Assembly (NCBI GenBank): GCA_964016885.1
Contig: OZ024757.1
Coordinates: forward strand, 34,782,001-34,846,000
Length of the DNA stretch: 64,000 bases
Reading direction: 5' to 3'
Source: Eledone cirrhosa
Taxonomy: Eukaryota
Made by a program: the position numbers and the translations under genes. Positions within the stretch are counted from its first letter, which is position 1, and every line of letters starts with the position of its first letter. The notes beneath the pieces were generated by a model, which saw nothing but the letters and a program-made list of their open reading frames with translations, was not told where the DNA came from and searched no databases. Of this stretch, positions 4,645-52,342 are shown piece by piece.

Positions 4645-6261
4645 GTGATGGAAAATAAATTCAGTGAGAAGATAAAATGTAAAACACTGTCTAAAAGGAT
4701 TACTATACCTGATGAGACAAAGGGTAGAGAAGAGAAGCCATATAACTGTGATATCTGTAAAAAGTCATTCTTTAATAAGAACAACTTCACTAAGCATAAA
4801 CGTGTACATACAGGAGAGAAGCCATACCACTGTAATATCTGTAGTGAATCATTCTCTCAAAAAGGAAGCTTGACAAGGCACAAACATGTACATACAGGAG
4901 AGAAGCCATATCACTGTATTATCTGTGGTAAATCATTCTCTCAAAAAGGACACTTAACATCTCACAAATCTATACATACAGGAGAGAAACCATATCAATG
5001 TGATATCTGTGGTAAATCATTCTCTCATAGTAGTGCCTTAACATCTCACAAACATATACATACAGGAGAGAAGCCATATCACTGCGATATCTGTGGTAAA
5101 TCATTCTCTCATAGTAGTGCCTTAACATCTCACAAACATATACATACAGGAGAGAAGCCATATCACTGTGATATCTGTAAAAAGTCATTCTTTAATAAGA
5201 GCAACTTCACTAAGCATAAACGTGTACATACAGGAGAGAAGCCATACCACTGTAATATCTGTAGTGAATCATTCTCTCAAAAAGGAAGCTTGACAAGGCA
5301 CAAACATGTACATACAGGAGAGAAGCCATATCACTGTATTATCTGTGGTAAATCATTCTCTCAAAAAGGACACTTAACATCTCACAAATCTATACATACA
5401 GGAGAGAAACCATATCAATGTGATATCTGTAGTAAATCATTCTCTCATAGTAGTGTCTTAACATCTCACAAACATATACATACAGGAGAGAAGCCATATC
5501 ACTGCGATATCTGTGGTAAATCATTCTCTCATAGTAGTGCCTTAACATCTCACAAACATATACATACAGGAGAGAAGCCATATCACTGTGATATCTGTGG
5601 TGAATCATTCTCTCTAAAAGGAATCTTGATAGGGCACAAACGTATACATACAGGTGAGAAGCCATATCACTGTGATATCTGTGGTAAATCATTCTCTCAA
5701 AAAGGACACTTAACATATCACAAATTTATACATACAGGAGAGAAACCATATCAATGTGATATCTGTGGTAAATCATTCACTCATAGTAGTGCCTTAACAT
5801 CTCACAAACGTATACATACAGGAGAGAAGCCATATCACTGTGATATCTGTGGTGAATCATTCTCTTTAAAAGGAATCCTGATGGGGCACAAACGTATACA
5901 TACAGGTGAGAAGCCATATCACTGTGATATCTGTGGTAAATCATTCTCTCAAAAAGGACCCTTAACATATCACAAATCTATACATACAGGAGAGAAACCA
6001 TATCACTGTGATATCTGTGGTAAATCATTCTCTCAAAAGGGACACTTAACATATCACAAATCTATACATACAGGAGAGAAGCCATATCAGTGTGATATCT
6101 GTGGTAAATCGTTCTTTCAAAAAGGACACTTAACATATCACAAATCTATACATACAGGAGAGAAGCCATATCACTGTGATATCTGTGGTAAATCATTCTC
6201 TCAAAAAGGACACTTAACATATCACAAATCTATACATACAGGAGAGAAGCCATATCACTGA
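4645..6261 (+). CDS. Tandem C2H2 zinc-finger protein 'gene A', 18 fingers, no KRAB/SCAN
   Basis: CxxC-x12-HxxxH repeats with TGEKPY linkers after a ~30-aa leader. Confidence 0.9.
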
Positions 6262-8060
6262 TATCTGGTAAATCGTTCTCTAATAGTAGTAACTTTACTA
6301 GACTCAAACATGTACTTACAGGCGACAAGCCATATCAATGTGAGATCTGTGGTGAATCATTCTCTCTAAAAGGAATCCTGATAGGGCACAAACGTATAAA
6401 TACAGGTGAGAAGCCATATCACTGTGATATTTGTGGTAAATCATTCTCTTAAAAAGGACCCGTAACATATCACAAATCCTATACATACAGGAGAGAAACC
6501 ATATTGTGATATCTGTGATAAATCATTCTCTCAGTAGTACCTTAACATCTCACAAACGTATACATACAGGAGAGAAGCCATATCACTGTGATATCTGTGG
6601 TAAATCGTTCTCTAATAGTATTAACTTTACTAGACCCAAACATGTACTTACAGGCGAAAAGCCATATCAATGTGAGATCTGTGGTAAATCATTCTCAAAG
6701 TAGTCACTTAAATTCTCACAAACGTATACATACAGGGGAGAAGCCACATCACTGATATCTGTGATAAATCATTCTCTAATAGTAGTGCCCCTTAACTACT
6801 CACAAACGTTTACATACAGGAGAAAAGCCATATCACTGTGATATCTGTGGTAAATCATTCTCTCTAAGTAGTACCTTAAATAGACACAAACATATACATA
6901 CAGGAGACAAGCCACATGACTGATATCTGATAAATCTTTCTCTCGAAGTAGTATCTTAAATTCCCATAAACATATACATACAGGTTACATGCCATATCGA
7001 TGTGAGATCTGTGGTAAATCATTCTCTGACAGGAGTACGTTAACTCGTCACAAACTTATACATACAGGAGAGAAGCGATATCACTGATACCTGTGGTAAA
7101 TCATTCTCTCAAAAAGGAAGCTTGTTAAACCACAAATTATACATACAGGAGAGAAGCCATATCAATGTAATATCTGTGGTAAATCATTCTCTAAATGTAG
7201 TCACTTAACTTCCCATAAACTTATACATACAGGAGAGAAGCTATATCAATGTGATATCTGTGGTAAATCATTCTCTAAAGGGAATACCTTAACTTCTCAC
7301 AAATGTATACATACAGGAGTCAAGCCCTATCACTGTGATATCTGTGGTAAATCATTCTCTTATTCAGGTTCATTAACTAATCACAAACTTATACATACAG
7401 GAGACAAGCTATATCACCGTGATATCTAGTAAATCATTCTCTCGAAGTAGTCACTTAGCTTCCCATGAACGTATACATACAGGAGAGAAGCCATATCACT
7501 GTGATATCTGTGGTAAATCATTCTCTCAAAAAGGACACTTAACATCTCACAAATCTCTACATACATGGGAGAAACCATATCAATGTGATATCTATGGTAA
7601 ATCATTCTCTCGAAGTAGACACTTTAACTCCCACAAACATATACATGGAGGAGAGATGTCATTTCACTGTGATATCTGGTAAATAATTCTCTGATTGTAT
7701 TTACTTAACTTCTCACAAACATGTACATACAAGAGAGAAGCAATATCATTGAGATCTGTGATAAATGATTCTCTTGAAATTGTTTAATTAATGAACCACA
7801 AATACATATCAGTGCGATATCTGTGGGAAATCATCCTCTTTGAATGCTACATTTATTATACACAAACATATATACAGTTGGGAAGCCATATCACTTTGAT
7901 ATGGTAAATGACTCTAAATGTTGTGGCTTTTCTAGATACTAAAATATCCAGGAAATAAACCATATCACTGTGATGTCTGTGGTAAATAATTCTCTTGTAA
8001 AGGTTAATTAATGCAACACAATCACAATCAGACAAGATAAAAACCATATCACTAAGGCAA
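6262..8060 (+). pseudogene. Degenerate out-of-frame zinc-finger tail of gene A (~20 decayed units)
   Basis: 84-bp finger periodicity continues with frameshifts and stops. Confidence 0.88.
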
Positions 8061-8291
8061 AATAGTGCATCCAATGTTTTAAATGTTTTGAATAAAACTG
8101 TTTTACACAAAAATTACTCTCCTTTCTTTTTATTTGTAGAAGTTGTAACCAAGAATTTTTTTTGACAAAACTAACGTTCAGATTTACAAACATTATCTAT
8201 GTATATGTATGTGAAGAAATTTGTGTCCATATATATATTTGTATATAAGTATGTGCATATCTGTATTTGTATATAAGTATGTGCATATCTG

Positions 8292-50100: not shown

Positions 50101-50638
50101 TCCCAAGAGGTTGAATGATAAACTTTATAGAACATGCTGGAATACCACAACTCACATTGGAGAGAATTGCTCTGGACAGGAAAGTTGGTATCTACAGTTT
50201 ACCAATATAGAAATATAAAATTTCCACTTTTAAATCTATCACTGCTCGTGAAGTATTCTCTATTATCTTATACTGTTTCTTTCTTATTTCAGAATAACAG
50301 ATGACATTGGGATAAATTATTATTTTTAATCCTGGATACATCACCTATATTTAGCTTTTTATACAGAACTGATATAACACTGTTTATATAAATCTGTGGT
50401 TGAATAACTTTGAAATATTTCCCCAGAACTGATTTTTTTTGGCAAAATTTCTTTTCTTCACTATAAGATATATTCTGTATTTTTACTAAATTTGGATGAA
50501 AAAGAAGTTTGCATTATATTCAAATATTAACTGAGATCACAGTTGAGGGAAATATAGTAGAAAAACGATTTTCAGGAATATCATATAAAAAATATTACAA
50601 GAAAAGCATCTGTATATTCTATCAAAAAGAAAGAAAAC

Positions 50639-52342
50639 ATGATGGAAAACAGAGTGTGTGAGAAGATAAAATCTGAAACACTGTCTAAAAGGATAAATAT
50701 TCCAGATGAGATGCTGAAGGATAGAGGAGAGAAGCCATATCACTGTAATATCTGTAAAAAGTCATTCTCTTATAATAGCCACTTAACTACACACAAATGT
50801 ATACATACAAGAGAGAAGCCATATCACTGTAATATCTGTGGTAAATCATTCTCTCAAAAAGGAATCTTAACTAGACACAAATCTATACATACAGGGGAGA
50901 AGCCATATCACTGTGATATCTGTGGTAAATCATTCTCTCTAAAAGGAAACTTAACATCTCATATATCTATTCATACAGGAAACAAGCCATATCACTGTGA
51001 TATATGTGGTAAATCATTTGCTCAAAGTATTCACTTAACTAGACACAAACATATACATACAGGAGAGAAGCCATATCACTGTGATATCTGTGGTAAATCA
51101 TTCTCTGCAAGTAGTACTTTAACTACTCACAAGCATATACATACAGGTAAGAAGCAATATTACTGTGACATCTGTGGTAAATCCTTCTCTGAATCAAGTT
51201 CATTAACTACTCACAAGCGGATACATACAGGTGAGAAGCCATATCACTGTGATATCTGTGGTAAATCATTCTCTGCAAGTAGTACTTCAACTACTCACAA
51301 ACGTATACATACTGGAGACAAGCCATATCACTGCGAGTTCTGTAGTAAATCATTCTCTCAAAGTTGCCAATTAACTAGGCATAAGCGTATACATACAGGA
51401 GAGAAACCATATCACTGTGGTATCTGTGGCAAATCATTCTCTCAAAAAGGAAACTTAACATCTCACAAACATATACATACAGGAGACAAGTCATATTACT
51501 TTGATTTCAGTGGTAAATCAGTCTCTGAAAGTTGTCAGTCAACAAGACACAAAAGTGTACATTCAGGAGACAAGCCATATGACTGTGATATCTGTGGTAA
51601 ATCATTCTATCAACATGATAGCTTAACTAAACACAAACAAATTCATACAAGAAACAAGCCATATCACTGTCATATCTGTGGTAAATCATTCTCTCAAAAA
51701 GGAATCTTAACTAGACACAAATCTATACATACTGGAGAGAAGCCATATCACTGTGATATCTGTGGTAAATCATTCTCTCTAAAAGGAAACTTAACATCTC
51801 ATATATCTATACATACAGGAGACAAGCCATATCATTGTGATATATGTGGTAAATCATTCACTCAAAGTATTCACTTAACTAGACACAAACATATACATAC
51901 AGGAGAGAAACCATATCACTGTGATATCTGTGGTAAAACATTCTCTGCAAGTAGTACCTTAACTACTCACAAATGTATACATACAGGTAAGAGGCCATAT
52001 TATTGTGATATTTGTGGTAAATCTTTCTCTGAATCAGGTTCATTAACTACTCACAAGCGGATACATACCGGTGAGAAGCCATATCACTGTGATATCTGTG
52101 GTAAATCATTCTCTGCAAGTAGTGCTTCAACTACTCACAAACGTACACATACTGGAGACAAGCCATACCACTGTGAGATCTGTAGCAAATCATTCTCTCA
52201 AAGTTGTCAGTTAACTAGACACATACGTATACATACAGGAGAGAAACCATATCACTGTGGTATCTGTGGCAAATCATTCTCTCAAAAGGGAAACTTGACA
52301 TCTCACAAATCTAAACATACAGGAGACAAGCCATATCACTGA
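50639..52342 (+). CDS. Tandem C2H2 zinc-finger protein 'gene B', 19 units (unit 10 has lost both Cys)
   Basis: 567-aa ORF. Confidence 0.9.
   Translation: MMENRVCEKIKSETLSKRINIPDEMLKDRGEKPYHCNICKKSFSYNSHLTTHKCIHTREKPYHCNICGKSFSQKGILTRHKSIHTGEKPYHCDICGKSFSLKGNLTSHISIHTGNKPYHCDICGKSFAQSIHLTRHKHIHTGEKPYHCDICGKSFSASSTLTTHKHIHTGKKQYYCDICGKSFSESSSLTTHKRIHTGEKPYHCDICGKSFSASSTSTTHKRIHTGDKPYHCEFCSKSFSQSCQLTRHKRIHTGEKPYHCGICGKSFSQKGNLTSHKHIHTGDKSYYFDFSGKSVSESCQSTRHKSVHSGDKPYDCDICGKSFYQHDSLTKHKQIHTRNKPYHCHICGKSFSQKGILTRHKSIHTGEKPYHCDICGKSFSLKGNLTSHISIHTGDKPYHCDICGKSFTQSIHLTRHKHIHTGEKPYHCDICGKTFSASSTLTTHKCIHTGKRPYYCDICGKSFSESGSLTTHKRIHTGEKPYHCDICGKSFSASSASTTHKRTHTGDKPYHCEICSKSFSQSCQLTRHIRIHTGEKPYHCGICGKSFSQKGNLTSHKSKHTGDKPYH

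Follow-up and report, generated by a model that had tools for sequence, protein, structure and literature searches.

The 64,000-nt window analyzed here (Eledone cirrhosa, OZ024757.1:34,782,001-34,846,000) carries five C2H2 zinc-finger open reading frames (ORFs) on the plus strand, with three closely related genes, C1, C2, and C3, located between two others, A and B. We interpret C1-C3 (collectively C) as hybrid genes with a B-type front, an A-type back, and a start region of the type seen in a third paralog, D, which sits outside the window. In our reading, an unequal exchange generated the hybrid and left both main parents intact; we place the probability of this account at roughly 0.85. Coordinates are positions in the window, with negative values upstream of it; fingers are denoted f, and one unit spans 84 bp.

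Gene A (4648-6261, plus strand) encodes 537 residues with 18 C2H2 fingers and is the apparent donor of the 3' part of C, namely A f14-18, the stop codon, and the tail. Gene B (50639-52342, plus strand; 567 residues) has 19 units, of which unit 10 is degenerate, and would have supplied the DNA upstream of C and the array from the 3' half of C f2 to f9. C1 (16889-18169), C2 (28505-29785), and C3 (39572-40852), all on the plus strand, each encode 426 residues in 14 units. Thirteen units are intact in C1, where f13 carries a His to Gln replacement; C2 has 14 fingers, with TGGKP as its fifth linker; and C3 shows no difference from C2 in 15 units. The arrays are of the Kruppel-type tandem C2H2 form (C-x2-C-x12-H-x3-H, TGEKP-type linkers, 28-residue spacing), and zf-C2H2 and zf-H2C2_2 exceed the Pfam cut-offs in the cluster ORFs. 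These five are the last of 11 plus-strand finger genes in the 264 kb examined. The six upstream members, G, D, E, F, H, and I, lie at -63.6 to -3.1 kb, and the 70 kb that follow the window yielded none. The locus probably belongs to the known kind of clustered, recently expanded C2H2 genes in octopod genomes.

The two halves of C align with different parents. Aligned in register, C2 f3-9 and B f2-8 show 11 differences over 588 bases (0-3 per 84-base finger), and C2 f11-14 and A f15-18 show 3 over 336 (0-2 per finger); A and B are 15-19% different from each other in their best registers. C1 matches one or the other parent at 190 sites that distinguish A from B; it has the B-state at 118 of 127 positions up to 17794 and the A-state at 63 of 63 from 17802. 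The maximum chi-square for this switch is 154, a value reached by none of 10,000 permutations; per-finger alignment and recombination test both place the two halves with different parents. The stop codon and about 6 kb downstream of C also follow A (about 97.5-98% outside indels, short interspersed element (SINE) insertions, and the microsatellite), whereas the DNA downstream of B matches that of A at only ~80%, in two repeat-like pieces. The initial annotation, which had assigned fingers 11-14, the stop, and the downstream region to A, is therefore confirmed on these points. Its assignment of the leader and fingers 1-9 to B holds for C f3-9; the start region, f1, and half of f2 are instead D-type. 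Other paralogs were considered as main parents and rejected, as none of the six cluster genes and six distant arrays improves on B for f4-9 or on A for f11-14 (locus L027, with no array of at least five fingers, was left out of this comparison).

The position of the switch can be narrowed further. The last clearly B-diagnostic run in C1 stops at 17710 and A-diagnostic states begin at 17751, in agreement with the interval 17712-17750 proposed earlier; site states define a junction zone at 17711-17815 (plus strand), with A resumed by 17815. Positions 17713 and 17716 carry the A-state but match B's own internal copy, and they are likely to represent later silent changes in B. Position 17737 has the B-state, 17751 and 17761 are unlike both B copies, and 17762 is A-specific. 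With 17713 and 17716 read as probable later changes in B, and given the states of 17737 and 17762, the first exchange most likely took place in the 13-bp identity at 17738-17750 (C2 29354-29366; C3 40421-40433). At the junction, the longest stretches identical in A and B measure 20, 13, 9, and 11 bp. Finger 10 is indeed a patchwork, as had been observed, with five A-state sites, eight B-state sites (17784-17794, plus strand), and four A-state sites. The B-type patch covers helix positions +3 to +6, giving NLTS instead of A's ILMG, and two sources fit it comparably well: B f9, which lies in register, and the SLKGNL finger (C f4, B f3, B f13). A junction query against the 3.0-Gb genome returns three perfect matches, all in the window, among the 40 of 1813 candidates scored.

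The start of C has a different origin. Gene D (G000:C18 ~34,731,355-34,734,321; window -50645 to -47679, loci L004-L005) is located 67 kb upstream of C1. A 54-bp segment directly upstream of the ATG, retained in B and in all six A-type cluster genes, is missing from both C and D; a leader query against the genome yields no further full-length match of the 54-bp-short form among 40 candidates scored. Judged against three outgroup leaders, C and D have common derived states at 16876 and 16879, in the 54-bp deletion, and at 17045-17048, and three sites further upstream (16284, 16629, and 16753) place C with B. C f1 equals D f1 up to base 77. Bases 61-84 of C f1 together with bases 1-38 of f2 reproduce the D f4/f5 junction over 62 identical bases, and C f2 thereafter follows B f1. 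The D-type tract thus spans 16876-17106 in C1 (plus strand; the same in C2 and C3) and passes into B f1 within 17082-17106. Among 17 arrays compared, D (f5, f12, f21, and f27) and C f2 are the only carriers of the ELC motif. A copying model of C2 has a cost of 65 with A and B and of 51 with D added, a gain of 14, compared with gains of 0-3 for any of 11 other paralogs; the D gain stands at switch costs of 3, 4, and 6. The resulting mosaic order is B upstream, D, D (after a jump), B, A, B, A, and by these site states C is a gene with three parents, B, A, and D. C has nine fingers where B has eight, with the extra finger at the N-terminus. Loss of a finger in B was rejected as the explanation, since the outgroups show B f1 to be of the ancestral type and the extra finger belongs to the D tract. 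D itself comprises 32 fingers, built from a block of four to seven fingers repeated about four times. The 3' part of its intron, its leader, and its first two fingers are B/C-type, and its promoter block is only ~90% like that of C; D thus has the appearance of an earlier hybrid in its own right.

Internal repeats in A and B indicate the direction of descent. B f2-9 and f12-19 differ at 40 of 672 bases (6.0%), and both times a SQSCQL finger precedes a CGIC-SQKGNL finger, such that the junction after B f8 recurs within B at f18-19. Likewise, A f10-12 and f13-15 differ at 9 of 252 bases (3.6%), with an HSSAL finger before an ESFSLKG finger both times, and the junction before A f14 recurs at f10-11. 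The distances from C to its parents, 1.9% for B and 0.9% for A, lie below these internal divergences. SQSCQL is joined to ESFSLKG in C alone, and C lacks the junctions that B and A have at these points. Furthermore, all three C tails contain a SINE piece between 16-bp target duplications (19080-19174, minus strand; 30692-30786 and 41759-41853 behind C2 and C3) that is absent from A. As the parental junctions are repeated in internal duplications older than the C-to-parent distances, and as the C tails carry this insertion, the pattern shows C to be the derived gene, with A and B as its parents. A distant paralog on the same contig (C18:886 kb) keeps the B-lineage YQHDSL, SLKGNL, AQSIHL, and SQSCQL fingers of the B 3' half.

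The flanking DNA records a later event. Four repeat units were aligned, a (from A), b (C1), c (C2), and d (C3 to B), and site counts exclude the microsatellite and poorly aligned stretches (first-unit positions 5925-6015, 7000-7800, and 9640-10925). Before 12187, where a and d differ, b follows d at 98 of 102 sites and c at 102 of 102. From 12865 to 16860, b and c each follow a at 62 of 71 sites, and from 16861 to 17711 at 16 of 17. This switch in the middle units, reached by none of 5000 permutations, maps to 12188-12864 in first-unit coordinates (~23796-24476 and ~34854-35534 in the middle units). Middle units that are d-like and then a-like are as expected from mispairing of an A-spacer1-C-spacer2-B chromosome followed by a crossover that joined spacer2 to spacer1. 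Unit distances are graded, with 1.8-2.5% between a and d, 0.3-0.4% between C1 and C2/C3, and 0-0.05% between C2 and C3, and therefore provide an order of events; the 2% between the outer spacers may represent allelic difference rather than age. The crossover zone is overlapped by a non-autonomous element at 12297-13440 with 67-nt terminal inverted repeats (97% identical), which starts with GGGCAC, has a 6-bp flanking direct repeat, and is present in all four units; it was not found upstream of D. This element need not be the cause of the crossover, because the spacers are ~98% alike throughout. Together, the site states and the four homologous spacers support the earlier proposal of in-register recombination between 84-bp units with duplication of the spacer.

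The number of C copies is less secure. C1 is distinct, with three finger substitutions relative to C2/C3 and, at 19175-19669 (~19175-19358 and ~19480-19656, minus strand), two SINE insertions of its own, both flanked by target duplications. A 390-bp difference between the C1 and C2/C3 tails, considered as a deletion in C2/C3, is actually due to these two insertions. The C1 tail contains three insertions of one tRNA-like SINE within 600 bp, two of them at the same 16-bp target. The two private copies are younger than the split between C1 and C2/C3 (0.3%), and the SINE family has therefore been active recently. Over 5294 bp, C2 and C3 show no difference. The 6 kb upstream of the two genes differ by five substitutions and two length changes, with three of the five substitutions in the part that follows the C1 tail. 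Only two substitutions separate the C2 and C3 units in DNA equivalent to 12865-16860, and private C2 substitutions, both T alleles, are found at 25382 and 27512. A compound AT/GT microsatellite (10069-10925 in the first unit) has copies behind C2 and C3 (~33130-33700 and ~44197-44765) that are identical but for two bases.

Run X1 possibly represents the source sample. Its contigs (16 listed out of over 40,000 pieces) have depths of 9.9, 9.0, and 11.3 for unit-a-specific pieces, 18.6 for a b/c/d-type piece, and 27.5 and 22.8 for pieces common to all units. Two further rows of non-a type, 21.7 (at 14409) and 28.2 (15629-15762), may include D or other repeats. Although depth is not copy number, these values speak for two types of spacer and for the presence of more than a single non-a unit. 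Restriction site-associated DNA (RAD) runs X21 and X22 cover only spacer repeats, and 99% of their mapped reads continue into unlike sequence, which makes them uninformative about other individuals; the small-share runs X5-X20 were left out of the analysis. At least two C copies are real. The threefold amplification described in the initial annotation stands as three copies in the assembly with a distinct C1, but, given how little C2 and C3 differ, the third copy may reflect over-expansion of the assembly.

These observations can be combined into a stepwise model. An A-spacer-B chromosome would have mispaired with another, with B f8/9 opposite A f13/14, and an exchange in short identity would have yielded A-spacer1-[B/A]-spacer2-B. 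Patchy repair at this exchange, or later conversion by an SLKGNL finger, is the likely source of the B-type patch in finger 10. Template switching or conversion from D would have overwritten the start region and f1-2 at some time preceding the divergence of the C copies, earlier or later than the founding exchange. C would then have been doubled when spacer2 and spacer1 crossed over unequally near 12.2-12.9 kb; the product of this step is observed, and the process is the part we infer. Finally, C2 and C3 would result from a very recent one-unit duplication or from over-expansion of the assembly. The outcome would be a 426-residue bare finger array under a B-type promoter, and selection need not account for its spread.

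Several points weigh against this account. The A/B identities at the junction are short for an ordinary homologous crossover, and a replication template switch is an equally good first step. Neither the A-spacer-B ancestor nor the reciprocal deletion product was observed, and the hybrid junction is known only from the assembly. The X1 depths, with the reservation given above, fit three units somewhat better than four. D upstream DNA that is B-like over ~2.5 kb and D f2, which equals B f2, count against a simple one-way donation from D; D and the B/C lineages have therefore exchanged more than once, and the direction is clear for the D f4/f5 piece only. There is also no selection signal in the nine replacement and five silent changes of C relative to its parents (ratio of nonsynonymous to synonymous rates, dN/dS, 0.5; Fisher p 0.20), and replacements fall at contact positions in 3 of 9 cases (p 0.13). 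The missing zinc ligand of C1 f13 likewise counts against adaptation. The gain of copies excludes simple conversion as the origin, and the short identities are compatible with a replication switch. The same hybrid could indeed have arisen by template switching during replication or repair (or from a circle re-inserted in cis), with the D, B, A, B, A patches laid down in one multi-switch event. We give this route somewhat less than even odds. The very short identities and at least five donor changes within 1.3 kb speak for it, as do multi-switch products in the PRDM9 array in sperm, described in the available parts of PMC8600002. Against this, two allelic haplotypes immediately account for outer spacers that are 1.8-2.5% apart, whereas a cis event needs time, and in the later amplification the two spacers are joined by one clean switch. 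From sequence alone, the crossover and template-switch routes cannot be separated.

Other explanations concern the copies or the polarity. The hybrid may be real with only two copies per haplotype (or three and one), C3 being an assembly duplicate of C2. We regard this as rather unlikely, yet it draws on the 5294 identical bp, on long microsatellites that differ by two bases, on the two substitutions in the 12865-16860 equivalent, and on X1 depth ratios of ~2:1 and 2.4-2.9:1. Opposing it are the five substitutions and two length changes upstream of C2 and C3, and the X1 rows of 21.7 and 28.2 fit at least two non-first units, with the caveat that they may include D or other repeats. A reversed polarity, in which C is ancestral and A and B each acquired a replacement of one half independently, would explain why C keeps consensus states at silent sites 17713 and 17716, where B differs, and why it has one N-terminal finger more than B. 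It requires two replacements with coincident breakpoints, however, and conflicts with the recurrence of A's and B's junctions in older internal duplications, with derived marks in C that A and B lack (the 54-bp deletion and the SINE), and with the B 3' fingers of the distant paralog; we consider it very improbable. Even harder to credit is that the entire hybrid is an assembly chimera of A and B reads. Arrays of 84-bp units are repetitive and hard to assemble, and the junction is known from the assembly, but all C copies carry 11 and 3 fixed differences from the parents, along with the D tract, the deletion, and the SINE, which neither parent has. C1 has substitutions of its own, plus two private SINEs flanked by target duplications, and two spacer types are present in the X1 contigs. 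Unequal exchange between A and B, with a contribution from D, remains our preferred origin for C.

The predicted C protein consists of a ~32-residue leader and 14 fingers, in an ORF without an effector domain. Its contact residues (-1, +2, +3, +6) read YSHK YSHT QGIR LGNS QFHR ASTT ESST VSTT QCQR LGNS QGPY QGHS QGHY QGHY from f1 to f14. This order is found in neither parent, and the new predicted specificity proposed earlier amounts to no more than this order. In view of the general role of these residues in DNA recognition (PMC12575710, available parts), new targets are predicted for the array, and the protein most likely would be a DNA-binding factor with altered targets. KRAB is not among the Pfam families listed for the N-terminal parts of A, B, and C1 (best 25 of 27 for C1 and best 25 of 29 for B), consistent with the description of the cluster as KRAB-less, and the cluster ORFs contain no PR/SET domain, with fingers only after the ~32-residue leader. 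Searches with the first 332 residues of C1 return generic finger proteins at no more than 62% identity (best 120 of 6188), a leader-only search among longer proteins gives six candidates, none significant, and an Atlas search gives generic finger clusters and no ortholog; none of these results is evidence of absence.

In-frame stops are located 6 (A), 10 (C), and 27 (B) codons upstream of the ATG, and both B and C have an AG downstream of this stop and before the ATG that might serve as acceptor for a coding exon further upstream. A block at 10924-11470 (plus strand; copies at ~22590, 33650, and 44715, and at 1654-2247 for A) is 81-90% conserved between paralogs, has a donor-like site at ~11282, and is a candidate promoter and first exon. 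Its summed X1 contig depth exceeds 20,000, and it may be a promoter/first exon common to a large genome-wide finger-gene family. Run X4, of unknown kind, covers this block and was not used as expression evidence, and no RNA data set is listed for 14400-19600. All cluster genes have a splice-acceptor-like site ~300 bp before the ATG (16575-16589, plus strand, in C1; the others end at 4312, 28199, 39257, and 50292), where the finger exon would start. Given conserved donor-like and acceptor-like sites upstream of each cluster gene, the ORF is likely a single last exon, whose stop would not trigger decay. Behind the A stop, a degenerate finger tail at 6262-8050 (plus strand) is likely to be 3' untranslated region (UTR), with AATAAA/ATTAAA signals at 7954 and 8091; all C copies inherited it with deletions. 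In A, the stop seems to result from the loss of two bases where unit 19 begins. Both A and B end in TATCAC-TGA (6253-6261 and 52334-52342) with degenerate fingers behind, which looks like independent 2-base losses.

Mosaicism is, by its sequence patterns, general in this cluster. E f2 is one base from A f12, E f14-15 are two to three bases from F fingers, and G, H, and I have common fingers at one to five differences. The 1137 bp upstream of E and F (-43797 to -42661 and -32716 to -31580; loci L005-L007) are 99.2% identical, and the arrays differ; both arrays end in a SQSSHFN finger. The E/F pair is likely another case of conversion or hybrid formation. Elsewhere in the genome, about a dozen equally scoring finger-gene leaders occur at 8-12 kb spacing at G000:C14 ~8.96-9.07 Mb, and fourfold repeats of equally scoring finger-gene copies at G000:C27 ~15.8-16.3 Mb; both runs would be other recent tandem amplifications. 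All four units of the window carry a fragment of a retroelement of the type without long terminal repeats (non-LTR), with an RVT_1 and a weak PHD match (8277-9395, 20117-21262, 31339-32484, and 42406-43551, plus strand). Its nearest Atlas clusters have few labelled members, mostly molluscs. A 178-residue open frame at 53809-54345 (minus strand) contains a CxC-x4-CP motif and has no Pfam match at E 0.001. It has a GIY-YIG-like look, and we take it to be probably a Penelope-type fragment behind B.

The locus can be compared with known systems as described in the available parts of the cited papers. C is, by its arrangement, an anti-Lepore-type hybrid, and the mechanism would be of a known kind. 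The 5' part comes from the downstream and the 3' part from the upstream paralog (plus the D patch at the start), open A and B ORFs flank C, and the intergenic DNA is duplicated in four homologous spacers, as in the globin-type case with intact parents (PMC4041002). That paper also describes conversion before fusion (dolphin) and re-duplication of a fusion gene (hedgehogs). Unlike in anti-Lepore, the exchange here lies within an 84-bp array with many registers, finger number and order change, a third paralog is involved, and C is known as a genomic sequence. Similarly, the glycophorin DUP4/Dantu GYPB-A hybrid is duplicated through serial unequal crossovers and conversion (10.1101/083634); DUP4 lacks a full GYPB and has a demonstrated protein and selective effect, whereas both parents remain here. 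In the PRDM9 array, new arrays and hybrid fingers arise by switching between 84-bp units, often with several switches (PMC8600002). Those switches occur within or between alleles of one gene; here the donors are three paralogs up to ~100 kb apart, and gene number changes. C resembles PRDM9 in shuffling only; these ORFs have no SET domain.

Young mouse KRAB-ZFP clusters are likewise recombinogenic tandem clusters with segmental duplication, in which strains have private fingerprint arrays and fingers are duplicated, deleted, or common to paralogs (PMC12575710, PMC5363842). The accounts of these clusters stress recombination via transposons between genes; the founding breakpoint of C is in the coding array, and there is no KRAB box. 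Coleoid genomes have clustered, recently expanded C2H2 genes of this kind (PMC12513265, PMC9068888). The available main text of PMC12513265 contains no mention of 'chimer', 'recombin', or 'gene conversion', and here the recombination steps are readable at base level. No hybrid finger gene in cephalopods was found in the literature searched, outside of which most subscription papers and supplements lie. A more speculative idea, which we consider improbable, is that PRDM9-like switching between distant paralogs is the main source of new octopod arrays and that an expressed C was amplified for recognizing an active repeat, for example the tail SINE. The lead for such recognition is the design of Wells et al., who compared motif predictions for octopus finger genes with transposon libraries (PMC10547256, available parts).

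The mechanism is textbook, and the locus shows mutation, not adaptation. It nevertheless provides an unusually complete record of a new gene in a KRAB-less cluster, with two main parents, a third donor, a junction placed to within ~13-40 bases, and later crossovers, all from one assembly. A, B, and D versus C constitute a ready test set for target gain by recombined arrays and for the polymorphism of hybrids.

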